Shown here: positions 2,349 to 24,678 of the stretch, piece after piece | How the letters are laid out: every line of letters begins with the position of its first letter | Numbering within the stretch: position 1 is the first letter of the stretch | Assembly (NCBI GenBank): GCA_002327305.1 | Contig: DCUZ01000016.1 | Location: 7,873-71,872, forward strand | Length of the DNA stretch: 64,000 nt | Reading direction: 5' to 3' | Source: Holophagales bacterium UBA2201 | Lineage (GTDB): Bacteria; Acidobacteriota; Thermoanaerobaculia; UBA2201 | Position numbers and translations under genes: made by a program | Notes under the pieces: model-generated | What the model was told of the DNA's origin: nothing | Databases searched by the model: none | What the model saw: only the letters and a program-made list of their open reading frames with translations

Positions 2349-4508
2349 TTATTCATGGCTTTTCCCCTCAACTATATATATCTCTTCATCATTCAGACCA
2401 TAGAGCTCATAGACCAACTTATCGATCTGCCGGTCGGTTGCGTCTATTTGGCGCTGAAACAGATTCTTTTGCTCCTCCAACTTTGCGGCCGATATTTTCT
2501 TATGCAAGGTGAGCATAGTACCTACCAAATCTACTATCTGCCCATGCCGCACCTTATCATCATTATTTGTAAAATCAATGATTCGAACAGGCACTTTTTC
2601 CATGTACTGGTAGATCAAACGATATCGGTACTGCCCAGCACGAACGCCGAATGGAATGCTGATATTGCTAATTGCAAACCAGAAGAGTTTACTGTTAAGC
2701 AACCCCAGAAGATACGGATCATTTACCCCAATGCAATAAGCGGTATTGGATAGGTAATGCCCCTCCCTATCAAGGCAGAAGCGCGGCCCTTTGGCAATAT
2801 CTGGATAAATGATTTTTGCCTGATCAAAAACCTCCCAATAGGCCACATCATCTTGGATCTCATACCACTCATATCGGCCTGGTTTTCGTCCGCGCTTTGC
2901 GTTTTTATCGCGCTTGGGTGTCAGATCTTCTTTCCATTTTGAAAGATGCTCCATAATTGCAGGATAGTCCTTGATCCGTACACCACGCCGCGTGAAAATG
3001 AGCCATTGATCTGCTTCATGAAATACATATCGCCTGATATCTTCGCCGCCGAGCATCGGATGAATTAACTCCGCACTATTGGCATCCTTTCTAATGAGGT
3101 CAGTCCTTGTTTTGCTGTCGATAATGAAGGCTTCGTTAAGCCCTGTTTTAATTCCATAGCATATTTTATCTTTTGCAAAGTCGCAAAGAGGGATACCCGC
3201 CTTTGTTATCTTCTCGAATACATGGGCTTCATCATCGGATTTTAGCGACCAAGCATCTGGCTCCAATCTGACATGTGGGATAAAGTAATGATTGGCTTCG
3301 ACAAACGACTTTAAGTCTTGAATTTGCAGGGAAGGGATTCGGCTAACTTCCACGCTCTGGGGCTGTTCTGTTTTAACGAAAAGAGGAATGCATACATAAG
3401 TGTCTTTCGCGTTTTCAAACACGGCCAAGCCACCAAAGTCCACTATGCGAAGCACGCCTGCATGCTTTTTGATCTGACGACGTAGTGACTCACCATAGGT
3501 AGCCCGCAAGAAACTGCTTGAAACAATGATGCTGAAACGACCATTAGCGCGGAGGAGATCAAGGCCCCGTTCTATAAAATATGCGTAGAGGTCTGCCACC
3601 CCATGATAAGCTTCGTACTGCTTGGAGAAATAGTCTTTGAATTCTGATAGAGTTTCCTGTCTGACATAAGGCGGATTCCCGATCACCACATCAAACCCGC
3701 CGCCCTTCATGATCGCCGGGAACTCCCGATCCCAATCGAAGGCGTTGATCCGCTTCCGGTCCTCGTCCGAAAACATGTCCAGTTGCCTGCCCTGGTAGAA
3801 GTCCTGCCCGATGAGCGAATTCCCGCACTTTATATTGGCCGTGAGATCGGGGAGGACAAGCCCCCTCATATAAAGCATCATCTGCCCCTTGTCGAATCCC
3901 TTGTCCAATAGTTTAAGGTAGAGCGACATGATGGCCACTTCGGTGGCCTCGCGGTCGATGTCCACACCGAAGAGGTTGTTCTTGAGGATCCTCCCCTTCT
4001 TCTCCACGGTGAGGCGGACGTCGCCCTCGGCGGTCTGGTACCAGTCGCGGGCGTGGGCCTTGTCCTTTTTGTGCTCCGCGTACCACTCTTCATGGTATCG
4101 GATGAGCCGATCGAAGGCGCCCAGGAGGAAGGAGCCGGAACCGCACGCCGGATCGAGGATCTTGAGGGTTTCGATCTCCGCGGGGGTCTTGCCCTTGATC
4201 TTTTCGCCCACGGTGTGCTCGACTATGTAATCCACCACCCACTGCGGGGTGTAATAGACGCCGCCGGCGTGGCGGACCTCGGGCTTTTCCTCCACCTTGG
4301 CGCGGTGGCCCTCGGTCAACCAGATCTTGGAGCCCAGGAACCGCTCGTAGATGCGGCCCAGGATCTCCGGCTCGATGATGTCGAACTGGTAGGGGCTGGC
4401 TGGAGCCACCTCCCGCCCTGCCGAAGGATGAAGTATGAAGGAAAAATTATGAAGGAGGGGCAGAAGGGGGACAGGGGTGGGACGAGAAAAAGCTTCAAGA
4501 TAGGTCAT
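2349..4508 (-). CDS. Type IIG restriction-modification enzyme, C-terminal fragment (gamma-class N6-adenine MTase + target-recognition region); nuclease/helical N-terminal part missing
   Basis: The fragment aligns to residues ~310-994 of the intact paralog at 21694-24678 (YERFLG, AKVEEKPEV, YYTPQWVVDYIVEHTVG, LDPACGSGSFLLGAF, VIGNPPYVRQE). The first ~35 codons (4395-4508) show no homology to the paralog. It overlaps the 3' end of the four-helix-bundle gene by 14 nt. Confidence 0.7.
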   Translation of the reverse strand: MTYLEAFSRPTPVPLLPLLHNFSFILHPSAGREVAPASPYQFDIIEPEILGRIYERFLGSKIWLTEGHRAKVEEKPEVRHAGGVYYTPQWVVDYIVEHTVGEKIKGKTPAEIETLKILDPACGSGSFLLGAFDRLIRYHEEWYAEHKKDKAHARDWYQTAEGDVRLTVEKKGRILKNNLFGVDIDREATEVAIMSLYLKLLDKGFDKGQMMLYMRGLVLPDLTANIKCGNSLIGQDFYQGRQLDMFSDEDRKRINAFDWDREFPAIMKGGGFDVVIGNPPYVRQETLSEFKDYFSKQYEAYHGVADLYAYFIERGLDLLRANGRFSIIVSSSFLRATYGESLRRQIKKHAGVLRIVDFGGLAVFENAKDTYVCIPLFVKTEQPQSVEVSRIPSLQIQDLKSFVEANHYFIPHVRLEPDAWSLKSDDEAHVFEKITKAGIPLCDFAKDKICYGIKTGLNEAFIIDSKTRTDLIRKDANSAELIHPMLGGEDIRRYVFHEADQWLIFTRRGVRIKDYPAIMEHLSKWKEDLTPKRDKNAKRGRKPGRYEWYEIQDDVAYWEVFDQAKIIYPDIAKGPRFCLDREGHYLSNTAYCIGVNDPYLLGLLNSKLFWFAISNISIPFGVRAGQYRYRLIYQYMEKVPVRIIDFTNNDDKVRHGQIVDLVGTMLTLHKKISAAKLEEQKNLFQRQIDATDRQIDKLVYELYGLNDEEIYIVEGKSHE

Positions 4509-4875
4509 TTTGGGCCTTCACCTTCTTGATTATAGTAGCAAAGATGGCCGTAAGCTCATCGCATTCCTTCATTAGAGGCTTAAGTGTGTCTACGGGGTGG
4601 ATTCCGCTATCGCGTAAAAGTTCCAACCAATAGGCCGTTTCTTCAAGTTCTTTAAGGCTATCGCCCACCTTGGCCGAGAATTCGGCCTTGCTCCGGCTCC
4701 GATAGGCTTCGCGATAATTGGCTCCGATGGAAGTCCCTGATCGAAGGACCTGCTTTCCGATCATCCGCGCTTCAGGGCTTTTAGGTAGCCCGCTCGACAG
4801 GCGGATGATCTGGAGAGCGAAGCCCTTCGTCCTATCCCTCAAATCCTTCCCTTCGGCCCTGACTTCATCCCTCAT
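4495..4875 (-). CDS. four helix bundle protein (23S rRNA intervening-sequence protein family, TIGR02436-like)
   Basis: 126 aa with the family pattern DLRDRTKGFALQIIRL...LPKSPEARMIGKQVLRSGTSIGANYREAYRSRSKAEFSAKVGDSLKELEETAYWLELL. Its ATG overlaps the stop of the upstream fragment (ATGA). Confidence 0.8.
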   Translation of the reverse strand: MRDEVRAEGKDLRDRTKGFALQIIRLSSGLPKSPEARMIGKQVLRSGTSIGANYREAYRSRSKAEFSAKVGDSLKELEETAYWLELLRDSGIHPVDTLKPLMKECDELTAIFATIIKKVKAQNDLS

Positions 4876-5225
4876 ACTTCTGCCTTCATCCTTTTAGTGA
4901 GCGTGAAGACGGGCCGCTTGTCCGTGAGGGGCACATGGGGGGCCTTGGCCTCCACGAAGAACCGGGGCTTGCGCCGGACGCGGAAGGCGTAGTCGGGCTT
5001 TTTGATGGTGTCGCGTTCCTTCTGGCTATACTCGCGGTGGACGTCCCATTCGTCGCGGGGGAGGTGGGTTTGCTCGAAGTCCCAGCCGAGGGCCTGGAAG
5101 AGGGGGTCTATGAAGCGGTTTCTTGTTTCCGTTTCTTGGAAGGCTTTGGTTAGGTAGTGGGGTTCGTTTTTGTGGAAGTCTTCCACCTTTTGTTCGACGA
5201 GGGATTTGCCTTGGGAACGTTTCAT
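4872..5225 (-). pseudogene. N-terminal PD-(D/E)XK nuclease-domain fragment of a Type IIG R-M enzyme (truncated after the catalytic EAK motif)
   Basis: The 117-aa product is homologous to residues 1-~110 of the 994-aa paralog (FIDPLFQALGWDF, PDYAFRV..RFFVEAKAP versus FLDPFFKALGWDV, PDYCFRIGGVRKFFVEAKKP). It diverges and stops right after the EAK motif. It is in the same frame class as the C-terminal fragment. Confidence 0.65.
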
Positions 5226-5619
5226 GCCGCCACCCTACCAGCGGGCGACCCACCGGGTCGCCCCTACCAATACCCGCCGGCCACCTGCCTGGAGGGATTG
5301 CATCCCTCGCCTGCTTTCCTGCCGGCAAACCATCTGAACGCCATTACTGCTGATCGATACGGCCACTAATACCCCCTAAACCCTTTGAATGGCCCGAAAC
5401 ACTGGATAGGACTATACTCCCTTGAATGGGGCAGGGTCAAGGGCATGGCCGGGCTCCCGCGGCCGCTCAGTCCGGAAGGAATCGTTCAGATCTTTGTCTC
5501 CCGGGGCGTTGCCCCAAGCAGACGGTAAACCGGGCCTTGGGCCATCGAATAGTCAACGGCGGACAACGACCTGATTCCTTCAATGATATTGCAAAGGCAT
5601 GCGCTTTTACCAAGCGTGG

Positions 5620-6423
5620 CTAAGCGGCATGCGAAAGCCATGACACGATAAGAGATACGAGATGATCAGCGGCTTGCAGGCGGGCAGGCCATATGGAGAT
5701 CGCCCCAAAGATAGCCGCCAGGGCAAGCGCGACAGCGTTGGCACGGAAGACAGGATCTATAAACGTACCCGGGGCGCCGGAACCGGAAGCAAGACTCGCG
5801 ACCGCCCATTCTTCCCAAAATACTGTAATAAGAAGGCTGATACCGAGCGCAATCCAGATATAAAGGACCTTGAGGAGCCAGTAGAGGACCAACTGATTGG
5901 ATCCCGCCGCGCCTTGGCCGAGCCAGAACACGAAAGCACTCGCGACGAGCAGGATCGTCATGATTGCCGCGAGCGCCGCCGTCGGGCATGCCCGAATCCG
6001 GCTGTTGACGGCGACAAGCCGGAGCCGTTTGGCCGGAAGCAGGGAAAGGCCCCATATCACCGGAATGAAAATCAGCCAAAGAACGGGGACGCCTCCGAGG
6101 GCGACCGCCACAACGATTCCAACCACTGTGGAAAGGACATTCGCCAAAAACATGTAGATGACGGCCAGCCATCGCTTGAGGCCGCGCTGCAACACAGCGA
6201 ACAGCAATGCCTTGATGAGGACGATGACGCAAAGCACCTGGAGCGATGGGACAAGCCAGGACGGACCGGCAACCACCTTCATGAGTGGAAATATCGGTTC
6301 GCAGCCCATCAGGGCGCCGGAGGGGCACAGGGCGAGCAAGAAAGCAATGCTGGCCACGAGCAATGATCGTTTCGAGAGGGTCATGCGGCGCCTCCTGTGG
6401 ATGTCTTCATTTTGTGCATTCAT
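5620..6423 (-). CDS. hypothetical polytopic membrane protein
   Basis: 267 aa with multiple hydrophobic helices and no recognisable catalytic motif. The start may be the internal M of MTLSKRS. Confidence 0.45.
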   Translation of the reverse strand: MNAQNEDIHRRRRMTLSKRSLLVASIAFLLALCPSGALMGCEPIFPLMKVVAGPSWLVPSLQVLCVIVLIKALLFAVLQRGLKRWLAVIYMFLANVLSTVVGIVVAVALGGVPVLWLIFIPVIWGLSLLPAKRLRLVAVNSRIRACPTAALAAIMTILLVASAFVFWLGQGAAGSNQLVLYWLLKVLYIWIALGISLLITVFWEEWAVASLASGSGAPGTFIDPVFRANAVALALAAIFGAISIWPARLQAADHLVSLIVSWLSHAA

Positions 6424-6607
6424 GGCTTCTCCTGCAACTGCACTGAATTCCAGGCGGCCGTGATCCAGACGACGCGGCCCTTCCCCGCTGGGTGTGCCGA
6501 AAGCCCTGGAAATGGACAGAAATCGGCAAAGCCTCCAAAATCATATTCCCATGCTTCCGCATCATCCGCATCCTTCCTTCGCTAATTCCCGCCTTTCCCG
6601 CGGACTT

Positions 6608-6907
6608 TTACCCTTTCACCCCGCGGCCCCGCCAATAGCGTGGCCGACGGTGAAGATGGGCTACCGCTACAATAACGAGGCTCTGTTCATCCCGGCCATA
6701 AATGAGGCCATACGGGAAGCGGGCGAGAAAACAGCGTCGCAATTCAGGACCGATTTCGCTTCCGGAAGATGGGTAGACACTGATTCTTCGGACCGCCCGG
6801 TCCAACTCATCAAGGAATTCCATCCCCAATCCCGGCACCTGTACCTCGTACCATGCTACGGCATCGTCCAGTTCGCGTCGGGCGCGAATGGTGAACCTTA
6901 CGGTCAT
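6608..6907 (-). CDS. ParE/RelE-family type II toxin
   Basis: 99 aa with the ParE-like N-terminus MTVRFTIRARRELDDAVAWY, overlapping the upstream antitoxin by 4 nt. Confidence 0.75.
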   Translation of the reverse strand: MTVRFTIRARRELDDAVAWYEVQVPGLGMEFLDELDRAVRRISVYPSSGSEIGPELRRCFLARFPYGLIYGRDEQSLVIVAVAHLHRRPRYWRGRGVKG

Positions 6908-7126
6908 GACCTGCTGTACTTTTCCATGACGGCCCGATAGGACACGGTTTTAAGGCGGCCCGCCTTGTAGGCCTTCCACCGGCGATGCGCTTCCTGTGCC
7001 CAGGCACGGTCAATTTCCGGATCCGGCTGGTCAAGATCGGCCAGGATTGAATCCACCAGTTGAAGTTTTTCCATATCCGACAGGGATCGGATTTGTATGG
7101 CGAGTTTTTCCGCTTTGGCGCTCATA
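6904..7126 (-). CDS. type II antitoxin (putative addiction module component, ParD-like/CHP02574-like)
   Basis: MSAKAEKLAIQIRSLSDMEKLQLVDSILADLDQPDPEIDRAWAQEAHRRWKAYKAGRL. The start is placed at the internal ATG preceded by GGAGGTG; the longer track ORF is an N-terminal over-extension. Confidence 0.7.
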
Positions 7127-7330
7127 ATACGCACCTCCTGTGTTCGATTATAGTGTAGCACAGTGGTTTTCCACTCCCTCGTCACCGGCTCGTCGTTCGT
7201 CTTCCGCCCCGAGTCCGTTGGAAAAGCGAATCGGAGGGATTTGCCGAAAGCGAACGCCGGCTCGAAGAAGTCATCCCAGGAGCGGGACGCGCGGATGAAG
7301 CGGTCAACGGCGGTCGGGGGCATGGGGGGC

Positions 7331-7699
7331 TCATTCGGCCGCGAGGTTCCGGATGTAGTGGTTCAACTCCCTGGCCTTGCCGTCGAAGAACAGGGTGACG
7401 CAGGCCAGCACTTTCAACATCGACTGGACGCCGTCGGCCCTGGCCTCCGCGTCCGGTTGCCAGACGGCGTACCGGCCGGGGGCTTCGCTCCGGACCGCCA
7501 GATACCGCCGCGTCATGCTGTCATGGAAGATGATCGTCGGGGCCACCAGGGAGGGGTCCCGCTCCCGCTTGGCCAGCTCCCTCTTGAACGGGAAGGTCTT
7601 CACGAAGGAGAGGGCCGCGCTTTTTTCTATGGCCCCCATCTTCACCACATCGTCCGGCGACGAGGTGTCGAACAGAATCTTGTAGGTGAACCGGCTCAC
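7331..7699 (-). CDS. hypothetical protein
   Basis: 122-aa ORF in a plausible gap with no recognisable motifs. Confidence 0.35.
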   Translation of the reverse strand: MSRFTYKILFDTSSPDDVVKMGAIEKSAALSFVKTFPFKRELAKRERDPSLVAPTIIFHDSMTRRYLAVRSEAPGRYAVWQPDAEARADGVQSMLKVLACVTLFFDGKARELNHYIRNLAAE

Positions 7700-8004
7700 G
7701 GGCGCCCTCCGCCCCCCGCTCGCCGGCCTTTTCCAGGGCCGTTGCCGGGCGCCACTCGATTCCTCCGTGCCGGCGGGTCGGGGCCGCGCATTCCGCCACT
7801 ATACTCCCGCCTGGGAGAGGGGGTCAAGGGGGGGAGGAGGCCCCGCAAACGCATGCGCCGACCCGCACGCACGGGCGCTTGGGGCGTCCGCGGCAGGAAA
7901 GGACGCGGGGGGAACGGCCCGGCCCGGAAGGATGGACCCGGATCAAGCCGGCCGGGGATGCGAAGGGGCGGCTCCGCTCGGCGGAAGACGGCCCCACCGT
8001 CCCC

Positions 8005-9075
8005 TCACAGCTTCAGCGTCACCGCCAGGGTGGATTTGATGCGGGCGCCGGAGTCGGAGAAGAAATCCTCGCGCACATCGTGGAGGTAGCGCCCCAGGCC
8101 CGCCTCCACCTCGAGGTCCCGGCCGAGGGAGCGCCTCAGGCGCAGGGCGACGAAGTTCGTCGCGGCCTCGGTGAGGACGCGGGGATCGAAGAGGAGGTAG
8201 GAGCGCTCCAGCCGCCGGTCCTCGAACCGGAAGGAAAGGAGGAGGGTCCATCCCGGAGCGGGGGCGGCGGAGAGGGTGCCTTCGATCCCCCACCCCGTGT
8301 GCCCGAAGTCGGGGATGGATGAATCGGTCTCCTGGTAGAACAGCGCCGCCTGGACCAAAAACGGCCCCGCGACCTCCCACCCCAGGGAGACGAGGCGGAG
8401 GGTGTCGCGGTGGTCGCGGAACGAGGGGGGGGTGGGGGGCCCGCCGGAACCGCCCCCCGCGGGGATGACCAGAACGGGCTGGTCGAAATCCTGCACGGCG
8501 TAGGCGGCGGTGGCGCGAAGGCGGTGCCGCCCCCCCAGGGGCTGATCGGCCGCGAGGGAGGCGCGGGTCTGCCGGTGGGAAAAGACGGTGCGGTCCTGCA
8601 CCTCCAGGTCGCTCCAGTCGAGGGCGAGGCGGAGGCGGTCGTGCCACCGCAGGGCCGCCTCGGCGCCGAAGCGGGTGTAGGGGTCCTCCTCCACGGGGAA
8701 CCGCTCCTCCCTCCCCTGGGCGTCGCGGAACTGGTAGCGGGCGGAGCCGTCCAGCACCAGGCCGGCCCCCAGGGCTGCCCCGGCGCGGTATTCGAGGCCG
8801 CCGTAGAGCATCCGCGCGGGAGGGGGATCGGCGGACGAGCCCCCCCAGGGGTCCAGGACCGTGAAGTGGTAGGCGACGCTCTGCCGCGCCTTCGAGTACC
8901 CCCCCCCGACCCGCAGGGCCGAGAAGACGGCGCCGGCGTCGCCGGGTTCGAATTCATAGAGACGGGAATGGTGTTCGAGGCCGAGAGAGAACCGGCTCTC
9001 GCCCGCCCATTCCTCCGCCCCCCAGGCGCCGGCGGCCCAGAGGATGGCGCACAGGAGCGCGGTCAGACGGGTCAT
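8005..9075 (-). CDS. putative outer-membrane beta-barrel protein
   Basis: Signal peptide MTRLTALLCAILWAAGAWG followed by alternating amphipathic beta-strand-like sequence (start trimmed to this Met). Family unknown. Confidence 0.45.
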   Translation of the reverse strand: MTRLTALLCAILWAAGAWGAEEWAGESRFSLGLEHHSRLYEFEPGDAGAVFSALRVGGGYSKARQSVAYHFTVLDPWGGSSADPPPARMLYGGLEYRAGAALGAGLVLDGSARYQFRDAQGREERFPVEEDPYTRFGAEAALRWHDRLRLALDWSDLEVQDRTVFSHRQTRASLAADQPLGGRHRLRATAAYAVQDFDQPVLVIPAGGGSGGPPTPPSFRDHRDTLRLVSLGWEVAGPFLVQAALFYQETDSSIPDFGHTGWGIEGTLSAAPAPGWTLLLSFRFEDRRLERSYLLFDPRVLTEAATNFVALRLRRSLGRDLEVEAGLGRYLHDVREDFFSDSGARIKSTLAVTLKL

Positions 9076-9175
9076 CCCCCCCATTATCCCCGATGGGAGG
9101 GGCAAAAGCAATCCCGGAACCGCGCATTTGCTATAATCCGAAGATGCGTTCGCCAATCCCGCCCCGGACCGCCGG

Positions 9176-9943
9176 ATGCGCTTTCTCCTGACCAACGACG
9201 ACGGCATCTATTCGGAAGGGCTGAAGGTCCTCCACGACGCCCTTCTCCCCATGGGCGAGGTGTGGGTGTTCGCCCCCGACCGGGAGCGGAGCGCCGTCTC
9301 CCACGCGCTGACGCTGGACCGCCCCCTGCGCGCGGAGGAGCTCCGTCCCCGCTGGTGCGCCGTCTCGGGGACCCCCACCGACTGCGTCAACCTGGGGGCG
9401 ATGCACTTCATGAAGGGCTTCCCCCCCGACCTGGTGGTCTCCGGCATCAACATCGGCCTCAACCTGGGGGACGACGTCACCTATTCCGGCACCGTCTCCG
9501 CCGCCTTCGAGGCCTCCATCCTCGGCCTCCCCGGCTTCGCCTTCTCGCAGGAGATGGGGCGCGGCGTGGACCTGGCGGCCTCCGCCGCCGCGTGCGTCCG
9601 CATCGTGGCCTTCTTCGCACAGCGCGGCCTGCTCCGCCCCGGCGCCATCTACAACGTCAACATCCCCGCCGGCCCCTTCGGCCGGCCCCTCTTCGCCCGG
9701 CTCGGCAAGCGGCACTACCAGGAAAGCATCGTGGAGAAGCTGGACCCCCGCGGCCGGAAATACTACTGGATCGGCGGCGAGCCCATCCCGGGCCGGCCCG
9801 ACAAGGGAACCGATTTCGAGGCCCTCCACCGCCAGCGCATCAGCATCACCCCCCTCCATCTCGACCTGACGGAATATCCCGTCCTGCAGGACCTGCGGTC
9901 CCTGCAGGGGGAGTTGGAGGCCCTCTTCGATGCCCGGGAGTGA
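9176..9943 (+). CDS. surE: 5'/3'-nucleotidase SurE
   Basis: MRFLLTNDDGIYSEGL...SGINIGLNLG hallmark motifs. It is upstream of pcm as in the classic surE-pcm pair. Confidence 0.9.
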   Translation: MRFLLTNDDGIYSEGLKVLHDALLPMGEVWVFAPDRERSAVSHALTLDRPLRAEELRPRWCAVSGTPTDCVNLGAMHFMKGFPPDLVVSGINIGLNLGDDVTYSGTVSAAFEASILGLPGFAFSQEMGRGVDLAASAAACVRIVAFFAQRGLLRPGAIYNVNIPAGPFGRPLFARLGKRHYQESIVEKLDPRGRKYYWIGGEPIPGRPDKGTDFEALHRQRISITPLHLDLTEYPVLQDLRSLQGELEALFDARE

Positions 9944-16222: not shown

Positions 16223-16531
16223 CTACTCCTCGTATTCGTGCTCGTAATCTTCGAAACTGCCCCGCTGGTCCTCCACCAGCTCCTCGTCAAGGTTTTCGTC
16301 CACCTTCTCCTCCCCCTCGTCGTCGGCGGGCGCGGCGGCCGGCTTCTCCTCCGGGGCCTCCTCCTCTTCCTCCACGGGGCGCACGCGCTTCTTCTCCCAG
16401 GCCTCCTTCTCCTCCGACTCGTTGACGCGGTGCTTGCACTTGGGGCAGATGGGCTCCGGCTTCCCCAGATCGTAGAACTTGATCCCGCAGTCGGGGTTGG
16501 TGCAGATATGTTTTTTACCGAGATCGGCCAT
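16223..16531 (-). CDS. zinc-ribbon protein with acidic C-terminal tail (FYDLGK family, TIGR02300-like)
   Basis: MADLGKKHICTNPDCGIKFYDLGKPEPICPKCKH followed by a Glu/Asp-rich tail. The start is placed at the ATG with AAGGAG 6 nt upstream. Confidence 0.55.
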   Translation of the reverse strand: MADLGKKHICTNPDCGIKFYDLGKPEPICPKCKHRVNESEEKEAWEKKRVRPVEEEEEAPEEKPAAAPADDEGEEKVDENLDEELVEDQRGSFEDYEHEYEE

Positions 16532-16621
16532 GGGCGCTCCTTGGGGGCGGAAAATGGAGGCCAATTAAACCAGAAGGAGGAGCGCTTGTCAAGCCGAGGG
16601 ACACAAGGGTACAATGCGCCG

Positions 16622-17275
16622 ATGCGCCTTCTCCTTTTCGTCGCCCTCCTGGCCGCCTCCCCGCCGCCTCCCGACACCATGGACGACCTCTTCGTGCGGA
16701 TGCGGACCGCGCAGGAGAAGGTCCGCACGCTGGAGGCGCGCTTCGAGCAGGTGAAACGGTCGTCCCTCCTGGCGGAGGAGGCGGTTTCCAGCGGGGTGAT
16801 GGTCTATCAACAGCCGGACCTCATCCGGTGGGAGTACCTCGCCCCCGACCCCCATGTCATCCTCATCCGGGGCGACGCGTTCAGCGCCTACTACCCGCAA
16901 TTGCAGAAACTCAAGACGGCCCGCGTGGCCCGCCTGCGCCACCGCCTCTTCAACTTCATCGTGGCCACCGAACCCCTGGAGAAACTGAAGTCCCATTTCC
17001 AGGTGGAGTTGCGGGAGGGGGGGGACCGCCCCACCCGGACCCTCGTCCTCACCCCCCTGACCCGGCAGATCCAAAAAACCCTCGCCCGGGTGACGATCCA
17101 GGTGGACAAGACCTCGTTCCTCCCCCTGGAACTGCTCATCGAGGAGGCCGACGGCGACTCCACCCGCATCCGGTTCACCGCCGTCACCGTCAATCGGGAA
17201 CTCCCCGCCGAACTCTTCCGCCTTCAGGTCCCCCCGGGGACCGTGGAAGAGACGTACGCCCCCGGCGGGCGATGA
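16622..17275 (+). CDS. LolA-like outer-membrane lipoprotein carrier protein
   Basis: Signal peptide MRLLLFVALLAASPP, a LolA-sized product (~217 aa) and a conserved central region. It overlaps the tgt start (ATGA). Confidence 0.55.
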   Translation: MRLLLFVALLAASPPPPDTMDDLFVRMRTAQEKVRTLEARFEQVKRSSLLAEEAVSSGVMVYQQPDLIRWEYLAPDPHVILIRGDAFSAYYPQLQKLKTARVARLRHRLFNFIVATEPLEKLKSHFQVELREGGDRPTRTLVLTPLTRQIQKTLARVTIQVDKTSFLPLELLIEEADGDSTRIRFTAVTVNRELPAELFRLQVPPGTVEETYAPGGR

Positions 17276-18336
17276 GCGCCCCGTTCACCCTCCTGGGACA
17301 AAACGGCGCCGCCAAGGGACGCCGGGGGTGCCTCCACACCGCGCACGGGGTCATCGAGACGCCCAACTTCATGCCGGTGGGGACCTACGGCACCCTCCGG
17401 GGCGTCCCCTCGCACCTCCTGCCGGACCTCGGCGCCCAGGTGATGCTGGTCAATTTCCTCCACCTCTTCTTCTATCCCGGCCCCGAGGCCCTGGCCCGCG
17501 CCGGGGGGGTCCACCGATTTTTCTCCATCCCCGTTCCGGTGCTGGCCGATTCGGGGGGATACCAGGTCTTCTCCCTCGGCTCCCACCGAAAGGTCGGGGA
17601 GGAGGGGGTGCCCTTTCAGGACCCCCGCTCCGGCCGCAAAGAGCTGTTCACCCCGGAGAAGGTGACGCAGTTCGAGGAGTCCATGGGGATGGACATCGGG
17701 ATGGTCCTGGATGTCTGCCTCCCCCACGATGCCGGTCGCAAAGCCCACGAAAAAGCCGTCGCAGTGACCCACCGGTGGGCGGAACGGGCCCTTGCCGCCG
17801 CCTCGCGCGAACGGATGCTTGTATTCGGCATCGGGCAGGGGGGGACCTTTCCCGACCTGCGCCGCCGCTCGGCCGAGGGGCTGGCGTCCCTCCCCTTCGA
17901 CGGCTACGGCATCGGGGGACTGGGCATCGGAGAGGAGCCGGAGCGCACCTTCGAGGCGCTGGAGGCCTCCCTCGAAGGATTGCCGGAGGACAAGCCCCGA
18001 TATTTCATGGGGATGGGGTACCCTCAGGACATCGCCCGGGCCGTGGCGATGGGGGTGGACCTCTTCGACTGCGTCCTCCCCACCCGCAACGCCCGCAACG
18101 GCCAGCTCTTCACCTCGCGGGGGGTCATCAACTTCAAACGCAGTGTTTTCAAGGAAGTACATGCCCCCCCCGATCCCGCCTGCGCCTGCCCCGTCTGCCG
18201 CCACTACTCCCTGGCCTACCTTCACGCCATGTTCCGACAGAGGGAAATGAGCGCCGCGGTCCTGGCCACCGTCCACAATGTGGCCTACTACCTTGACTTT
18301 TTGGCCAAAATCAGGGAAAATACCGCCTCCATTTAA
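17272..18336 (+). CDS. tgt: queuine tRNA-ribosyltransferase
   Basis: FMPVGTYGT, ADSGGYQV and the zinc motif CACPVCRHYSLAYLHA. The long track ORF 16828-18336 has a spurious N-terminal extension. Confidence 0.9.
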   Translation: MSAPFTLLGQNGAAKGRRGCLHTAHGVIETPNFMPVGTYGTLRGVPSHLLPDLGAQVMLVNFLHLFFYPGPEALARAGGVHRFFSIPVPVLADSGGYQVFSLGSHRKVGEEGVPFQDPRSGRKELFTPEKVTQFEESMGMDIGMVLDVCLPHDAGRKAHEKAVAVTHRWAERALAAASRERMLVFGIGQGGTFPDLRRRSAEGLASLPFDGYGIGGLGIGEEPERTFEALEASLEGLPEDKPRYFMGMGYPQDIARAVAMGVDLFDCVLPTRNARNGQLFTSRGVINFKRSVFKEVHAPPDPACACPVCRHYSLAYLHAMFRQREMSAAVLATVHNVAYYLDFLAKIRENTASI

Positions 18337-18359
18337 ATCCCCAAGGAGGGAATCCGGTT

Positions 18360-18650
18360 TTGAGCCAGAATCCGAACCCTATCATCAGTCTGCTTCCGCT
18401 CGTCGTCATCTTCGGCATCTTCTATTTTATGCTCATCCGCCCCATGCAGAAGAAGCAGAAGGCCCACGCCAACTTCCTCAAGGAGTTGAAGAAGGGCGAC
18501 AAGGTGGTCACCAACGGCGGACTCTACGGCGCCATCCTGGCCGTGGAGGACGACGCGGTGGTCCTTAAACTGTCGGAGAACGTGAAAGTGCGCGTCGCCA
18601 AGTCGGCCGTCGCGGGCGCCCAGCCCGGCGAGGGCAAGACCGAGTTGTAG
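18360..18650 (+). CDS. yajC: preprotein translocase subunit YajC
   Basis: Single N-terminal TM helix plus the GDKVVTNGGLYGAI motif, between tgt and secD. TTG start as in the track. Confidence 0.8.
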   Translation: MSQNPNPIISLLPLVVIFGIFYFMLIRPMQKKQKAHANFLKELKKGDKVVTNGGLYGAILAVEDDAVVLKLSENVKVRVAKSAVAGAQPGEGKTEL

Positions 18651-18670
18651 GCGGCGCCAAGGAGACCCCC

Positions 18671-20224
18671 GTGAAAAAAGAACTGCTCTGGAGACTCATC
18701 CTCATCGTCGCCATCACCGCCGGCTGCCTCTGGTCCATGTTCCCCCTGAAGGAACGGATCAACCTGGGGTTGGACCTGCGGGGCGGCAGCCACCTGGTCA
18801 TGGAGGTGCAGACGGGCGACGCCATCCGCGCCGACCGCAACGACGCCCACGACTTCCTGGTGGAAAAACTCAAGAAGGAGGGGATCACGGCCGGCGAGGC
18901 GCAGTTCCCCGCCGACAACACCTTCTCGATCATCGTGCCCGCCGATTCGATCAAGGAGGCGCGCGTCCAGGCCGAGGACGACCTCCCCGGCTGGAGCGCC
19001 GACTACTCCGGGACCACCCTCACCCTGAAAATGGCCGGCAACATGCTCAAGGACCGGGAGGACAAGGCGGTCCAGCAGGCCCTGCAGACCATCAGCAACC
19101 GCGTGGACGCCCTCGGCCTGGCCGAGCCGATCATCCTGCGCGAAGGGACCTCCAACCGCATCGTGGTCCAGCTCCCGGGCGTGGACGATCCGGAACGGGT
19201 CAAGGACATCATCAAGGCCACCGCCGTCCTGGACCTCAAACTCGTGGACAAGGGGCCCGCCGAGAACAGGGAGGACCTGATCCAGGCCTACGCCGGCAGC
19301 GTCCCCGCCCATGTCGAGATCATCGGCGGCAAGTACAAGGACGAATCGGGGCGCACCATCCGCAATTTCTACGCCGTGGAGAAGAAGGCCGCCGTCTCCG
19401 GGCGCGACCTCAAGAACGCCCGCCGCTCCATGGACCGCTACAACCAGCCCGCCGTGGAGTTCTCCCTCAACGCCCAGGGGGCCAAGAAATTCGCCAAGGT
19501 CACCGGGGAGAACATCAACCGGCGCCTGGCCATCATCCTGGACAACCAGGTGATGTCGGCCCCCAACATCAAGGCGCAGATCTCCGATTCCGGCATCATT
19601 GAGGGGAGTTTCGACATCCAGGAGGCCGAGGACCTGGCCCTGACCCTGCGCTCCGGCTCCCTCCCCGCCTCGGTCATCTATCTTGAAGAGCGGACGGTGG
19701 GCCCCTCCCTCGGACAGGATTCCATCAACCGGGGGGTCAAGTCCGGCCTCATCGGGCTGCTCATCGTCGCCGTCTTCATGCTGTTCTATTACCGCCTCGC
19801 CGGCGTCAATGCCGTCACGGCCCTGTGCCTCAACATCGTCATCCTCCTCGGCGTGATGGCCTACTTCCGCGCCGTCCTCACCCTCCCCGGCATCGCCGGC
19901 GTGGTCCTGACCATCGGCATGGCGGTGGACGCCAACGTCCTGATCTTCGAGCGCATCCGGGAGGAGATCCTCCTGGGCAAGTCGGTCAAGGCGGCCATCC
20001 AGCTCGGGTTCTCGCGGGCCATGTCGGCCATCGTGGACTCCAACCTCACCACCATCATCTCGGCCCTGTTCCTCTTCCAGTTCGGAACGGGCCCCATCAA
20101 GGGTTTCGCCGTGACGCTCATCATCGGCCTCTGCGCCTCCATGTTCACGGCCATCTTCGTTTCGCGGTCCATCTTCGACTTCTTCTTCAAGTACCGCGAA
20201 CGCGTCGAGACCCTGAGCATATAG
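18671..20224 (+). CDS. secD: protein translocase subunit SecD
   Basis: LGLDLRGGSHLVMEV... with a 6-TM C-terminal domain, in tgt-yajC-secD-secF order. Confidence 0.9.
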   Translation: MKKELLWRLILIVAITAGCLWSMFPLKERINLGLDLRGGSHLVMEVQTGDAIRADRNDAHDFLVEKLKKEGITAGEAQFPADNTFSIIVPADSIKEARVQAEDDLPGWSADYSGTTLTLKMAGNMLKDREDKAVQQALQTISNRVDALGLAEPIILREGTSNRIVVQLPGVDDPERVKDIIKATAVLDLKLVDKGPAENREDLIQAYAGSVPAHVEIIGGKYKDESGRTIRNFYAVEKKAAVSGRDLKNARRSMDRYNQPAVEFSLNAQGAKKFAKVTGENINRRLAIILDNQVMSAPNIKAQISDSGIIEGSFDIQEAEDLALTLRSGSLPASVIYLEERTVGPSLGQDSINRGVKSGLIGLLIVAVFMLFYYRLAGVNAVTALCLNIVILLGVMAYFRAVLTLPGIAGVVLTIGMAVDANVLIFERIREEILLGKSVKAAIQLGFSRAMSAIVDSNLTTIISALFLFQFGTGPIKGFAVTLIIGLCASMFTAIFVSRSIFDFFFKYRERVETLSI

Positions 20225-20233
20225 GAGCGGGCC

Positions 20234-21376
20234 ATGCTGCGCATCTTACGCAATCCCCAATTTCCCTTCATGAAGTACCGGCTCCACTGGCTGGCCTTCT
20301 CCGCCCTGCTCATCCTGGCCGCCGTCGTCGCCTTCTTCGTCCGCGGCGGGTTCAACTTCGGCATTGATTTCGCCGGCGGGACCCAGGTGGCCGCCAAGTT
20401 CCGCGAGCCGATGGACATCGCCAAACTGCGTGCCATCCTGGAGGCCGCGGGCTTCAAGGACACCACCATCCAGCATTTCGACGATCCGGCCCTCAATGAG
20501 TTCCTCATCCGCGTCCAGAACATCGAGGGGCGCGAGGGCGAGACCGTCAGCCAGCTCCTGGGCGTCCTCGGCCGGTCGCTCAACGCCCCCCCTCCGGAAT
20601 CCGACCTCAACCTCCTCGGCACCAAGGCGGTCGCCGAGATCCTCTCCTCCGGCCCCTCCGAGAGCCCCGAGACCGTCCAGTCCGTGGCCGCGGCCATCGC
20701 CGCCCTCAAGAAGGACAAGGGGATCCTGGCCTCCCACGCCGACCTCAAGGACATCGACGGCCTGAGCCCCGCGATGTTCGACACCCTCAAGCAGAAGACC
20801 GCCGTGGGGCCCTACAGCGTCCTCTCTTCCGAGAGCGTCGGCCCCAAGGTGGGGAAGGACATCCAGAAAAAGGCCGTCTGGGCCGTCCTGGGGTCCCTCG
20901 CCGGAATGCTGGTCTACATCGCCTTCCGGTTCAAGCACTTCTCCTGGGGCCTCGGCGCCATCGCGGCGATCTTCCACGACGTCCTGATCATCCTCGGGTT
21001 CATGCTCTTCACCAACCGCCCCCTCGACCTCACCGGCGTCGCCGCCCTCCTGACGCTGATGGGCTATTCCATGAACGACACCGTCATCGTCTTCGACCGC
21101 ATCCGCGAGAACATGCGCCTCCGCAAACCCGGCACCCTGCTGGAGATCATGGACCGCTCCATCAACGAGACCCTCTCCCGCACCATCATCACCTCCGGCA
21201 CCACCTGGACCGTGGTGGCCTGCCTCTTCTTCCTCGGCGGCGACGTCATCAACAATTTCGCCTTCATCCTCTTCTGGGGCATCCTCATCGGCACCTACTC
21301 CTCCATCTACATCGCCAGCCCCCTGGCCTGGGCCTTCACCCGCAGGGCCTACGACCGGACCGCGAAGAAGAAGTAA
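20234..21376 (+). CDS. secF: protein translocase subunit SecF (with an expanded periplasmic domain)
   Basis: GIDFAGGTQV... and C-terminal TM bundle. It is ~80 aa longer than typical SecF because of an insert between TM1 and TM2. Confidence 0.9.
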   Translation: MLRILRNPQFPFMKYRLHWLAFSALLILAAVVAFFVRGGFNFGIDFAGGTQVAAKFREPMDIAKLRAILEAAGFKDTTIQHFDDPALNEFLIRVQNIEGREGETVSQLLGVLGRSLNAPPPESDLNLLGTKAVAEILSSGPSESPETVQSVAAAIAALKKDKGILASHADLKDIDGLSPAMFDTLKQKTAVGPYSVLSSESVGPKVGKDIQKKAVWAVLGSLAGMLVYIAFRFKHFSWGLGAIAAIFHDVLIILGFMLFTNRPLDLTGVAALLTLMGYSMNDTVIVFDRIRENMRLRKPGTLLEIMDRSINETLSRTIITSGTTWTVVACLFFLGGDVINNFAFILFWGILIGTYSSIYIASPLAWAFTRRAYDRTAKKK

Positions 21377-21405
21377 CCGCCCCCCCCCGTCCCCATGATC
21401 GCCGC

Positions 21406-21436
21406 GGCCCCGGGGCAACCCGGGGCCGTTCGTTTT
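21406..21436 (+). terminator. putative rho-independent terminator downstream of secF
   Basis: GC stem GGCCCCGGGG-CAA-CCCGGGGCC followed by GTTCGTTTT, 30 nt after the secF stop. It is also convergent with the displaced 3' gene remnant on the other strand. Confidence 0.5.
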
Positions 21437-21455
21437 GGGGATCTCCCGGGGTTGG

Positions 21456-21621
21456 TCAGCGGTTCAGCGCCGGGAACGATGCCAGCGGGGGGGCGCCCCA
21501 GATGCGGACGGACGCGGGGATCCCGTTGACGACGCAGGTCCACGAACCGTCCGTGCCCAACCCCGACATCTCCGCCATCCACACCGCCCCCCAGCCGTCC
21601 CGCGACGGGGCCTCGATGCGG
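21456..21621 (-). pseudogene. displaced native 3' end (alternative C-terminus) of the secreted-protein gene now at 27580-28080
   Basis: Reading the minus strand through repeat copy A gives ...MAEMSGLGTDGSWTCVVNGIPASVRIWGAPPLASFPALNR*. This is homologous to the C-terminus of the 27580-28080 product (...DYTWACTVDGRHSSIRVWGTPPLSSFPALNQAK*). Confidence 0.55.
21549..21621. repeat. 73-bp direct repeat, copy A (att-like boundary)
   Basis: 72/73 nt identical to 27680-27752 (tccgtgccca[a/g]ccccgacatctccgccatccacaccgccccccagccgtcccgcgacggggcctcgatgcgga). Confidence 0.85.
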
Positions 21622-21693
21622 AGTGCCATCCGGTCCCGGAGCCGGTCGCCGGATGTCTGCCGTTTGGGGGAGCTTTCCTAACGTCGCTTCGGA

Positions 21694-24678
21694 GTGTACA
21701 ATAAGCGCATGGGCATTGAAACAATCAAAGGTCTCGTGGACCGGTTTGAAACCCATCGGGATTCCTATACCTCCGGCTCCTACAACGAAACCCAGCTCCG
21801 CCGCGAGTTCCTGGACCCCTTCTTCAAGGCCCTCGGTTGGGATGTCTTCAACGAAAAGGGCTACGACGAGGCCTACAAAGAGGTCATCCACGAGGATTCC
21901 CTCAAGATCGGCGAATCCACCAAGGCCCCCGACTACTGCTTCCGCATCGGCGGCGTGCGCAAGTTTTTCGTGGAGGCCAAGAAGCCCTCCGTCAACGTCA
22001 AAGAGGATGTCTCCCCCGCCTACCAATTGCGCCGCTATGCCTGGAACGCCGACCTCCCCCTTTCCATCCTCACCGATTTCGAGGAGTTCGCCGTCTACGA
22101 TTGCCGTGAAAAGCCGGCTCTGACCGACAAGGCCTCCAGGGCCCGCGTCCTCTACCTCCCCTTCCACGAGTACCCGGAGCGCTGGGAGGAACTGGCCGCG
22201 CTTTTCTCCCCCGAGGCCGTCCTCAAGGGCTCCTTCGACCGCTACGCCCGATCGGCCAAGGCCAAGCGGGGCACCGCCGGGGTGGACGACGCCTTCCTAG
22301 AGGACATCGAGCGGTGGCGGGAACTGCTGGCCAGGGGCTTCGCCCTGCGCAACCCGGCCCTCTCCACCCATACCCTCAACTTCGCCGTTCAGCGCACCAT
22401 TGACCGCATCATCTTCCTGCGCATCGCCGAGGACCGCGGCCTGGAGCCCTACGGCACGCTTCTGGGGCAAATCAACGGCGAAGGCGTCTATCCCCGCCTC
22501 GTCGAGCTCTTCCGCAAGGCCGACCAGAAATACAACTCCGGCCTCTTCCACTTCCAGAATGAGAAGGGCCAGCACGAACGGCCCGACGACCTCACCCCCC
22601 GCCTCCACCTCGACGACAAGCCGCTGAAGGCGATCATCCAAGGGCTCTACTACCCCGAGAGCCCCTACGAGTTCTCCGTCATGCCCGCCGACATCCTGGG
22701 GCAGGTCTATGAGCGGTTCCTGGGAAAAGTCATCCGCCTCACCGCCGGCCATCAGGCCAAGGTGGAGGAGAAGCCGGAGGTGAAAAAGGCCGGCGGCGTA
22801 TTTTATACTCCCACCTTCATCGTGGACTACATCGTCCGGCATACGGTGGGACGGCTCCTGGAGGGCAAGACCCCCAAACAGATTTCAAGCCTGCGCATCC
22901 TGGACCCCGCCTGCGGCTCCGGCTCCTTCCTTCTGGGAGCCTACCAGTGCCTTCTCGACTGGCACCGCGACTGGTACCTTGCCGACGGCGCCGCGATACA
23001 CCCCAAGGAGATTTACCGCGCCCACACCGGGCAGTGGCGCCTCACCACCCCGGAGCGCAAGCGCATCCTCCTCAACTCCATCCACGGCGTGGACCTGGAC
23101 CCGCAGGCTGTGGAGGTCACCAAGCTCTCCCTCCTGCTGAAAGTCCTGGAGGGGGAGACGGAGCAGACTCTCCAGCACCAGATGGACTTCATGCGCGCCC
23201 GCGCCCTGCCCGACTTGGGGCGTAACATCCAGTGGGGCAACTCCCTCATCGGGGGCGACTACACCCACGGCCGGCAGTTGGACTTCGTGCCGGAGGAGGA
23301 GCGGTACCGCGTCAACCCCTTTGATTGGGCCCGCCAGTTCTCCGCCGTCATGGAGGCGGGGGGCTTCGACGCCGTCATCGGCAATCCCCCTTATGTGCGG
23401 CAGGAGACCCTGGGCGACGACTTCAAAGCGTATGCCGGCACGCACTTCAAGACCTTCGCCGGCACCGCCGACCTCTATGTCTATTTCATCGAGCGGGGCA
23501 TCTCGCTCCTGAAGGATGGCGGGATCTTCTCCTACATCGTCGCCAACAAGTGGCTGAGGGCCGCCTATGGGAAGCCTCTCCGGCAGTGGCTCAAGGACAA
23601 GGCCGTCGAGGAGATCGTGGACTTCGGCGACCTCCCCGTCTTCCAGGGCGCCACCACCTACCCCTGCATCCTGCGCGTCGCCAAGAGCAAGGCCAAGAAG
23701 AGTTTCAGCGCCGCCAAAGTACCGGACTTGGAGTTCACCGATCTGGAGGAGAAGGTCAAGGACCTGCGATACACCGTAGAGAAGACGACCCTCTCTCCAG
23801 ACGGCTGGTCGTTGGCCGACGCCAAGGTTTCGGCCCTCCTGGGGAAGATCAAGGCCCAAGGAATCCCTCTGAAAGAGTATGTCAAGGGAAAGATCTATCG
23901 GGGCGTTCTGACCGGCTTCAACGAGGCCTTTGTTATTGACGAGGCGACAAAGAAACGGCTCATCCAAGAAGACCCCAAAAGCGCCGAACTCATCAAGCCC
24001 TTCCTCCAGGGGCGCGACATCAAGCGGTATCAGCCGCCCACCCCGACGCGCTATCTCATCTTTACGCGCCGGGGAGTGGACATCAAACGCTATCCCGCCA
24101 TCGAGCGGCATCTGCTCCAATATAAAGAACTTCTAATGCCGAAGCCGAAAAACTGGAAGGGGAAAGAGTGGAAGGGGCGCAAGCCGGGGGCGTATCAGTG
24201 GTACGAGATTCAAGACAGCACCGATTATTACTCGGAATTTGAGAAGCCTAAGATTCTCTGGCCTGAAATAGCAGGCGATGCACGCTTCACCTTTGACCCC
24301 GCAGGCTGCTATGCCAACAACAAAGTGTTTCTAATTCCCTCTGAGGATAAATACCTTCTTGGCTTGTTGAACTCTTCGTTGCTAAAGACCTTCATACACT
24401 CCGTATGCACTGATCTCCAGGGCAGTAGTTTCAACTTCAGTGCTGTCTTTGTGCAAAAGACGCCTATCGTTGTGCCTGATCTTAAGGACAAAACACGGGT
24501 GAAGGCCAAAGAAGAGATCCTCGCCCTGGTGGACCAGCTACTTAAGATGAATGCCGACCTGGCTACCTGCACAAGCAATCAGCAGCGGGTGCTATGCCAG
24601 CGATATATTCTTGCCCACGAGAAGCAGATAAATAATGCTGTCTGTTCAATATACCGAATCGATCATGATGATTGCTAG
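21694..24678 (+). CDS. Type IIG restriction-modification enzyme (PD-(D/E)XK nuclease + gamma-class N6-adenine MTase + TRD), intact
   Basis: 994 aa. N-terminal PDYCFRIGGVRKFFVEAKKP (PD..EAK), SAM motif LDPACGSGSFLLGAY and catalytic VIGNPPYVRQE. The size and order match MmeI-like Type IIG/IIL enzymes. An alternative start is at 21709. Confidence 0.8.
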   Translation: MYNKRMGIETIKGLVDRFETHRDSYTSGSYNETQLRREFLDPFFKALGWDVFNEKGYDEAYKEVIHEDSLKIGESTKAPDYCFRIGGVRKFFVEAKKPSVNVKEDVSPAYQLRRYAWNADLPLSILTDFEEFAVYDCREKPALTDKASRARVLYLPFHEYPERWEELAALFSPEAVLKGSFDRYARSAKAKRGTAGVDDAFLEDIERWRELLARGFALRNPALSTHTLNFAVQRTIDRIIFLRIAEDRGLEPYGTLLGQINGEGVYPRLVELFRKADQKYNSGLFHFQNEKGQHERPDDLTPRLHLDDKPLKAIIQGLYYPESPYEFSVMPADILGQVYERFLGKVIRLTAGHQAKVEEKPEVKKAGGVFYTPTFIVDYIVRHTVGRLLEGKTPKQISSLRILDPACGSGSFLLGAYQCLLDWHRDWYLADGAAIHPKEIYRAHTGQWRLTTPERKRILLNSIHGVDLDPQAVEVTKLSLLLKVLEGETEQTLQHQMDFMRARALPDLGRNIQWGNSLIGGDYTHGRQLDFVPEEERYRVNPFDWARQFSAVMEAGGFDAVIGNPPYVRQETLGDDFKAYAGTHFKTFAGTADLYVYFIERGISLLKDGGIFSYIVANKWLRAAYGKPLRQWLKDKAVEEIVDFGDLPVFQGATTYPCILRVAKSKAKKSFSAAKVPDLEFTDLEEKVKDLRYTVEKTTLSPDGWSLADAKVSALLGKIKAQGIPLKEYVKGKIYRGVLTGFNEAFVIDEATKKRLIQEDPKSAELIKPFLQGRDIKRYQPPTPTRYLIFTRRGVDIKRYPAIERHLLQYKELLMPKPKNWKGKEWKGRKPGAYQWYEIQDSTDYYSEFEKPKILWPEIAGDARFTFDPAGCYANNKVFLIPSEDKYLLGLLNSSLLKTFIHSVCTDLQGSSFNFSAVFVQKTPIVVPDLKDKTRVKAKEEILALVDQLLKMNADLATCTSNQQRVLCQRYILAHEKQINNAVCSIYRIDHDDC

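Follow-up and report, generated by a model that had tools for sequence, protein, structure and literature searches.

A stretch of 64,000 nucleotides (nt) from Holophagales bacterium UBA2201 (contig DCUZ01000016.1, positions 7,873 to 71,872), here called the window, contains two look-alike restriction genes that differ in origin and status. Gene A (21694-24678, plus strand) is predicted to encode a complete single-chain Type IIG restriction-modification enzyme of 994 amino acids (aa), while gene B (2349-4508, minus strand) encodes a 719-aa protein of methyltransferase (MTase) and target recognition domain (TRD), which derives from a Type IIG gene and is a remnant without nuclease. An earlier note, made by eye from the sequence, had described both genes as compositional mosaics with a GC-rich core and an AT-rich C-terminal region, and had proposed shuffling of specificity modules by recombination as the cause. 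In this study, we located the composition steps of both genes, compared the encoded proteins with each other and with known enzymes, and analyzed 80 loci of the same family from genomes that each represent a species and together span many phyla of bacteria and archaea.

The sequence of gene A shows the marks of a Type IIG enzyme, namely a putative PD-(D/E)XK nuclease on the same chain as a predicted gamma-class N6-adenine MTase and a fused C-terminal TRD. The nuclease motif PD..ExK is formed by PDY at aa 79 and VEAK at aa 93, of which the E is invariant in an alignment of 22 sequences. MTase motif I (DPACGSGSF) is located at aa 404 and motif IV (NPPY) at aa 564. Pfam searches yielded HSDR_N (2.4e-11), Eco57I (1.2e-45) and TaqI_C (1.2e-14); alongside Eco57I, the families N6_Mtase and MmeI_Mtase also gave hits. 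Residues 10-993 of A align end to end with the 1011-position PADLOC profile REase_MTase_IIG PDLC03604 (E 2.7e-207). For the AlphaFold model (pLDDT 76), the nearest solved folds are CamA, BpuSI, MmeI, DrdV and BrxX; with BpuSI, MmeI, DrdV and the BREX protein BrxX the match extends over the whole chain, while CamA is best for the MTase and TRD. Also in the order of its parts and its length of about 1000 aa, A resembles the known Type IIG monomers (Eco57I, 997 aa; BpuSI, 3S1S; MmeI family, 5HR4; DrdV, 7LO5), at 13-16% identity to the solved members in fold alignments. The Eco57I and BpuSI systems have an adjacent companion DNA methyltransferase, whereas A is without one, like the solitary MmeI type.

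Gene B starts with a leader of 35 non-homologous codons. The protein aligns with residues 321-993 of A (46% identity), covers positions 311-1003 of the PADLOC Type IIG profile, matches Eco57I (2.1e-43) and TaqI_C (1.1e-10) and has kept the catalytic motifs DPACGSGSF (aa 119) and NPPY (aa 278). Unlike in Type IIG enzymes, the nuclease is absent; the Pfam scan gave no HSDR_N hit in gene B. An N-terminal nuclease remnant of its ancestor gene is present as a separate open reading frame (ORF) of 117 aa (4872-5225, minus strand), in which PD..ExK is kept and the domain is truncated (HSDR_N 3e-08; GC content at third codon positions, GC3, 0.75). It is 36% identical to residues 6-112 of A and only 29-45% identical to any N-terminus of the family. 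Because this remnant is a separate and truncated ORF, we classify B as a Type IIG derivative and not as a Type IIG enzyme.

Between the remnant and gene B lies an element of about 470 base pairs (4424-4893, minus strand), which has imperfect inverted repeats of 45 nt at its two ends (4424-4468 and 4849-4893) and contains a gene for a four-helix-bundle protein (4495-4875, minus strand; Pfam 23S_rRNA_IVP 4e-21, TIGR02436 1.7e-27). The 5′ arm of the repeats is purine-rich and the 3′ arm pyrimidine-rich, and the arms are paired in the predicted RNA fold (z -3.75). Homology to A breaks off at about 4898 and resumes at about 4403, so that the element replaced the equivalent of A residues ~113-320. 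Judged from these features, B is at most a solitary methyltransferase, whose nuclease was lost by deletion and insertion of the IVP gene. The element resembles a discrete intervening-sequence (IVS)-like insertion cassette within a protein-coding gene, and no other copy of it was found in the window or the other 80 family loci. The loss of the nuclease seen in B is recurrent, since many relatives are forms of 690-810 aa that lack HSDR_N; also, the N-terminal module of the family is variable, with a Fic domain in place of the nuclease in some relatives of B (N-terminal variants listed: P0017, P0046; P0011, P0028, P0037, P0045, P0067, P0072, P0098).

The closest match in sequence and fold for the MTase and TRD parts, CamA of Clostridioides difficile (7LNI, 8CXZ), matches A residues 362-487 and 558-915 (E 2.9e-36; Foldseek E 2.6e-24), and this match includes the DNA-recognition domain of CamA. 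CamA is a solitary adenine methyltransferase, and B is likewise nuclease-less. However, CamA is a conserved orphan of one species, whereas B is a truncated Type IIG derivative, upstream of which lie a nuclease remnant and an inserted gene.

For the determination of GC3 break positions, a maximum-likelihood change-point test with a 2-log-likelihood support interval was used, and significance was obtained by shuffling. In gene A, GC3 drops from 0.875 to 0.624 after codon 721 (window 23857; support 711-724; log-likelihood ratio (LLR) 36.7; 0/1000 shuffles), and in gene B from 0.81 to 0.46 after codon 277 (support 268-282; LLR 46.3; 0/1000 shuffles), the upstream value of B being 0.86 once the 35 leader codons are excluded. 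Both genes are thus mosaics with highly significant discontinuities, which was the outcome of the windowed-GC check that the earlier note had suggested. Its raw GC estimates also agreed with the measured values, which are 0.624 (21694-24099) and 0.480 (24100-24678) for A and 0.592 (3751-4508) and 0.453 (2349-3750) for B. The switch in B had been placed near NPPY, and the break in fact coincides with the N of this motif (codon 278, window 3677); codon choice flips visibly just past GNPPYV. For A, the drop itself was seen correctly at ~24100, but the break lies about 240 nt further upstream. Since spurious long ORFs in GC-rich DNA spoiled the change-point null within the window, only clearly genuine genes were used for comparison: bona fide high-GC3 genes reach an LLR of at most 9, and a comparable step occurs in the RHS gene only.

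The breaks divide both genes into parts of different content. In A, the GC-rich, host-like part (21694-23856, plus strand; codons 1-721; GC 0.631, GC3 0.875) comprises the nuclease, a helical linker, the whole MTase catalytic domain and a first variable stretch. It is followed by an AT-shifted specificity cassette (23857-24498, plus strand; codons 722-935), along which GC3 sinks further from 0.70 (codons 722-850) to 0.54 (codons 851-935), and by an aberrant, AT-shifted C-terminal helical tail (24499-24678, plus strand; codons 936-994; GC3 0.58). In B, the GC-rich 5′ part (3678-4403, minus strand; codons 36-277; GC3 0.86) contains the N-terminal half of the MTase up to but excluding NPPY, and the AT-rich 3′ part (2349-3677, minus strand; codons 278-719; GC 0.445, GC3 0.46) contains NPPY, MTase motifs V-VIII, the TRD and the tail. 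The earlier equation of the AT-rich region with the TRD therefore does not hold, since the break in B is inside the MTase catalytic domain and not at the TRD boundary, and the AT-rich tracts enter downstream genes. At the other end of A, the first ~25 codons (21694-21768) have a GC3 of 0.56 compared to 0.89 thereafter (LLR 8.0; 0/500 shuffles), and database gene calls begin at Met6 (21709). The annotated GTG start (21694) is probably too far upstream and the true start likely 21709.

Such drops might be a by-product of the amino-acid composition of TRDs, which are rich in Lys, Asn, Ile and Tyr, or of codon context, and GC at first codon positions (GC1) is indeed slightly lower in the 3′ parts. 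However, the steps persist equally strong at four-fold degenerate sites, while GC at first and second positions (GC1+2) is nearly unchanged, which shows that the signal reflects the history of the DNA and is not caused by amino-acid composition. Also, a cassette 71% identical to that of B has a flat, high GC3 of ~0.75 in another GC-rich host (L096), thereby indicating history and not an intrinsic constraint as the reason for the AT-richness of B, and the AT-rich tract continues into unrelated genes. We regard an explanation by composition as practically negligible.

An origin of the mosaics as assembly chimeras, in which DNA of a GC-rich and an AT-rich organism was joined at conserved motifs, is suggested by the metagenomic source of the window and by the location of the B junction at the most conserved motif of the family. 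Eight contigs of separate JGI, ENA and Logan assemblies (five at the B locus, a sixth reaching window position 5251 only, and two at the A locus) reproduce both mosaics with the same junctions at 99.4-100% identity over 3.5-8 kb per contig, and mismatches among them are confined to one contig end. GC-rich DNA flanks each AT-rich block on both sides in independent contigs. The mosaics are thus not chimeras, and any residual chance of it is minute. Variants of A or B carrying other cassettes were not detected in the population; cluster members differ by at most 4 residues.

A and B are 46% identical overall, and each of them shows about 65% identity to proteins of other phyla. They are therefore not recent duplicates, being closer to relatives elsewhere than to each other, and the term paralogs used before is misleading. 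Identity between A and B varies along the chain, with 54% in the N-terminal half of the MTase, 56% in B 437-560 (the first TaqI_C part), and 34% and 21% in the last ~160 aa. Hence, the C-terminal regions are loosely similar, as had been claimed, in the last ~160 aa but not in B 437-560. Since the variable stretches are only 20-34% identical, it is plausible from the sequences that A and B recognize different targets.

One could also suppose that both whole genes and their neighbors form a recent island in which the 5′ parts were converted by a resident homologue, e.g. mutually between A and B. The GC content of the A and B regions is intermediate (0.58-0.65) and lies below the ~0.70 of the core genome, and both genes are surrounded by defence and toxin-antitoxin genes, as expected for an island. 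Gene conversion between A and B was considered and rejected, as blastn gives two short stretches of ~71% identity only. In addition, a third copy is absent from the window, and the 5′ parts are very unlike each other as well as all relatives in the databases; the 5′ part of B has host-like codon usage but is unusually divergent at the protein level (median identity to the family of the MTase N-terminal segment, core1, 0.54 compared to 0.71 for all pairs). We therefore rate conversion within a recent island as quite improbable.

The composition steps of A and B recur throughout the family. GC3 was higher in the 5′ than in the 3′ block in 77 of 78 loci (mean difference 0.145). Significant change-points were present in 46 of 75 near-full-length genes, and all 46 are drops from high GC3 at the 5′ side to low GC3 at the 3′ side. 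In A-coordinates, 34 of them fall around NPPY (500-599) and 8 at the start of TaqI_C (700-799); B and A each represent one of these two recurrent breakpoint classes. The step of B (0.40) is about 2.5 standard deviations above the family mean for its GC class. The GC3 meta-profile goes down at NPPY, remains low to about codon 935 and rebounds over the last ~60 codons, a zone which corresponds to the predicted C-terminal helical hairpin (modelled as H928-953/H957-981 in P0121 numbering). On average over 69 loci, GC3 amounts to 0.697 in the 5′ block, falls to 0.525 in the cassette and is back at 0.690 in the tail, with the 5′ block above the cassette in 69/69 and the tail above the cassette in 62/69 loci. 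At the family level, the recognition segment thus lies between conserved coding flanks on both sides, and the tail of A is aberrant. No other tail among the 240 family members diverges as much (median identity 0.25 compared to 0.55 for all pairs), and while the cassette of A (722-935) is 68-73% identical to that of its nearest relative, P0122, the tail is only 31% identical. Therefore, A has a second discontinuity at ~935, where the conserved GC-rich tail was replaced by an AT-shifted tail-like sequence overlapping the start of the next gene, ORF455.

Independently of composition, the 5′ and 3′ blocks of the family do not share the same pattern of relatedness. Among 240 homologues, pairwise identities correlate well within blocks (Spearman 0.64-0.80; N-terminus with core1 0.70, core2 with TRD1 0.80), but between the 5′ and 3′ blocks only with 0.12-0.20, which holds inside each hit set too. 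The congruence of core and TRD, which the earlier note had named as a result that would refute its idea, was thus not found in this comparison of distance matrices, which is not one of formal trees. Within the B-hit set, the correlation of the tail-containing segment is higher with the 5′ block (0.61) than with core2 (0.36). For B itself, the 3′ part is of a mainstream type and reaches 71% identity to members that share only 54-58% with B in core1, which places these pairs below the 5th percentile.

Direct evidence for exchange came from close relatives. In P0151 and P0095, the DNA is 97-100% identical to nt 1710, the end of the NPPY codons (nt 1699-1710), then mostly 30-70% identical to nt ~2770, i.e. 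over about 1.05 kb, and again mostly 93-100% identical from nt ~2798 (codon ~933). The DNA sequences of P0202 and P0213 part at codon ~780 and come together again at codon ~933. Double-crossover cassette swaps thus took place in these two pairs of close relatives. Near-identical backbones with unrelated cassettes were seen in P0151/P0095, in P0202/P0213/P0122 and in many protein pairs, whereas the nearest relatives of A and B are only ~65% identical. In the clade nearest to A, which includes P0122, the swapped segments have a GC3 of 0.2-0.65 compared to 0.7-0.97 in the flanks. Shuffling of specificity modules by recombination, as proposed originally, is thereby supported by the incongruence within the family and by swaps at the DNA level, with the modification that the exchanged unit is larger than the TRD alone.

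Based on these results, we consider it likely, with a probability of roughly 0.78, that the AT-shifted 3′ parts of A and B are recombination-exchanged specificity cassettes of a mobile Type IIG family. According to this model, A and B would be independently acquired members of a large, horizontally mobile family of Type IIG enzymes with a single chain of ~1000 aa, which are predicted to consist of a PD-ExK nuclease, a helical linker, a gamma-class N6-adenine methyltransferase, a TaqI_C-type TRD and a C-terminal helical hairpin. The region from NPPY to ~60 residues before the C-terminus would be exchangeable, as one cassette or as several. Homologous DNA that enters the cell may recombine within the 5′ block and within the tail, both of which are conserved, and thereby replace the DNA-recognition part, and a single exchange would re-target cleavage and methylation together, because one TRD serves the nuclease and the methyltransferase. 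The GC3 steps of A at the start of the TaqI_C region and of B at NPPY would mark the left junctions of such exchanges, with the exchanged cassettes being AT-richer than their flanks. MTase motifs V-VIII would travel with the TRD, since the exchanged unit starts at NPPY in the commonest class and in B. The right junctions appear to be unusual in both genes: in B, the putatively foreign block spans an OLD-like ATPase gene and extends over the first ~55 codons of the one after it, and in A, the conserved tail seems to have been replaced by a divergent, AT-rich tail abutting a gene for a HEPN-fold protein. The target-recognition parts of A and B would then come from a different source than their catalytic cores. 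A possible source is an AT-rich mobile pool. The family also occurs on 23 IMG/VR viral contigs (L101-L123), whose GC3 is mostly uniformly low, with L103 dropping from 0.70 to 0.27 at NPPY, and viral contigs are possible vehicles of cassette transfer.

Several observations weigh against an origin of these parts by recombination. For A and B themselves, the databases contain neither a donor nor a sister allele, the best relatives being ~65% identical overall and 71-73% in the cassettes. For this reason we infer the recombinational origin of the two genes' own steps from the family; the direction of transfer and the difference in specificity are likewise inferred. P0122 shares the step of A, with GC3 falling from 0.87 to 0.60 at codon 733 and returning to 0.82 at the end, so that the step of A could be inherited and not made in this lineage. 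Shared as it is by the clade and the family, the step cannot serve to date a recent event in this genome. In the case of B, the 3′ part and the adjoining OLD-like gene differ in GC3 (0.46 and 0.38), which leaves a joint event unproven. Finally, the offset between blocks is near-constant and never reversed, amounting to ~0.13-0.19 in hosts with a 5′ GC3 of 0.5-1.0 and to 0.06 below 0.5, and this is not what random donors alone are expected to produce. A process other than recent transfer may therefore maintain the AT offset found in 69/69 loci, and an in-situ compositional process may contribute to it.

Taken to its end, this reasoning leads to a model without any exchange, in which AT-biased mutation with inefficient selection, or GC-biased gene conversion of recombining flanks, generated the steps in situ. 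It accounts for the uniform direction of the drops (46/46 significant cases, 69/69 loci) and for the size range of the offset, and also for the fact that both blocks track flank GC with the same slope of ~1.3. The swapped alleles of P0202 and P0213 are both AT-rich, and the step is found in the closest relative of A, despite a protein identity of 65%, at which synonymous sites must be saturated. On the other hand, the steps are abrupt, and their positions coincide with the junctions at which close relatives suddenly lose and later regain nucleotide identity. A step is missing from some members (L096, L031, L043), and the exceptionally large step of B is continuous with AT-rich neighbors. Moreover, synonymous equilibria should differ between neighboring parts of a gene only if recombination differs, which makes such a process a complement to exchange rather than an alternative. 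As the sole cause, we consider it unlikely, and cassette exchange remains our preferred explanation.

Exchange of this type is an evolutionary process that has been described before, and it does not amount to a novel kind of system. For Type IIG genes, allelic diversity of the TRD is documented in Campylobacter and Streptococcus thermophilus (Furuta 2010, PMC2853133). In Type III modA genes, a recognition domain with lower GC content lies between conserved flanks, significantly so in modA12 (Gawthorne 2012, PMC3311624), and domain shuffling is known for Type I HsdS (Loenen 2014, PMC3874165). Like the family studied here, Type IIG alleles, modA and HsdS have conserved 5′ and 3′ coding flanks around a variable recognition segment, which recombination and horizontal transfer exchange. 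Differences exist in three respects. The commonest left junction of the present family is the catalytic NPPY motif, so that half of the MTase fold moves with the TRD; the pattern extends across phyla (69/69 loci) and is not limited to one species; and the AT-rich tracts in this window extend to downstream genes. The family therefore offers an unusually clean natural example of specificity-cassette exchange with defined junctions. These junctions are NPPY, the point where the TaqI_C region begins and the point where the C-terminal helical hairpin begins, and they could inform the design of chimeric Type IIG enzymes. They show, in addition, that half of the methyltransferase fold usually moves along with the TRD. 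For research on the evolution of GC content, the constant and never-reversed offset across hosts of differing GC represents a small, well-posed puzzle.

The AT-rich DNA of B is part of a continuous block of about 3.36 kb (320-3677, minus strand), which includes codons 278-719 of B, an ATPase gene and ~55 codons of the gene after that, and according to composition profiles both of its ends fall within open reading frames. The ATPase gene (562-2223, minus strand; 553 aa; GC3 0.38) encodes an OLD/GajA/AriA-like ABC ATPase (Pfam AAA_15 4.1e-21; PADLOC AriA 2.5e-23, also GajA and Old) with a probable C-terminal TOPRIM region, for which there was no profile hit, a faint retron_Ec67_fus match at aa 368-452 and a VEG...DWD pattern recognized by eye. 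The adjacent gene (1-485, minus strand; 472 aa; start at 485), of which the window contains the 5′ end and which extends past its left end, encodes an Mrr_cat/NA-iREase1 protein matching the PADLOC candidate system PDC-S02 (1.8e-76). Its GC3 rises from 0.44 to 0.79 at codon 55 (0/500 shuffles). Convincing direct repeats or target duplications flanking the AT-rich blocks were not found. The genes for the OLD-like ATPase and the PDC-S02 protein (window 1-2223; L001 12286-15442), directly downstream of B, constitute a small defence island together with a ParE/antitoxin pair (6608-7323).

A related phenomenon is known from Rhs/YD-repeat toxins, which have a GC-rich core and an AT-rich C-terminal tip with an immunity gene, and which undergo C-terminal displacement. 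They share the signature of an AT-rich variable 3′ module together with AT-rich downstream genes; protein family and function are unrelated, and the Type IIG cassette is normally internal with a conserved tail and not terminal. By analogy, conserved Type IIG motifs such as NPPY and the tail might serve as homology anchors for swapping downstream defence genes along with the cassette. The 3.36-kb block of B, which extends in frame from NPPY to codon ~55 of the next-but-one gene, and the replaced tail of A would then be footprints of cargo exchange, comparable to an Rhs tip with its immunity gene. We regard this idea as tentative and on balance doubtful; if true, cargo exchange would be a route by which defence islands diversify.

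Downstream of A, ORF455 (24635-26002, plus strand; GC3 0.35; alternative starts 24665 and 24668) is AT-rich and overlaps the 3′ end of the gene. Its product contains a C-terminal HEPN four-helix fold with the conserved R-x4-6-H motif. It is a rare protein and not a conserved partner of the Type IIG family, and its homologues stand alone elsewhere. Homology to ApeA, which sits downstream of the closest relative of B (L095), was rejected, as there is no sequence similarity. A conserved downstream partner gene in general was likewise rejected: in 60 family loci, the first downstream ORFs are heterogeneous and range from tRNA synthetases to assorted PADLOC defence candidates. Homologues of the IVP, OLD-like and ORF455 proteins are absent from the other 80 family loci, in which PDC-S02 gave two weak hits only. 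In three loci (L091-L093), ORF455 homologues are located ~1.9 kb downstream of a gene for a 344-aa protein with a weak DUF8426 match, and DUF8426 also matches the PDC-S02 protein beside B. ORF455 and PDC-S02-type proteins may thus represent a recurring neighborhood of two otherwise unlinked defence candidates.

A third AT-rich island of the window is located at the RHS/YD-repeat gene (50800-55701, minus strand; 1633 aa), whose GC3 drops from 0.79 to 0.37 at codon 1472. The gene is followed by small AT-rich ORFs (50257-50787, 49068-49763 and 48234-48911), of which the last two are alike. This region shows the classic pattern of a variable toxin tip with immunity genes.

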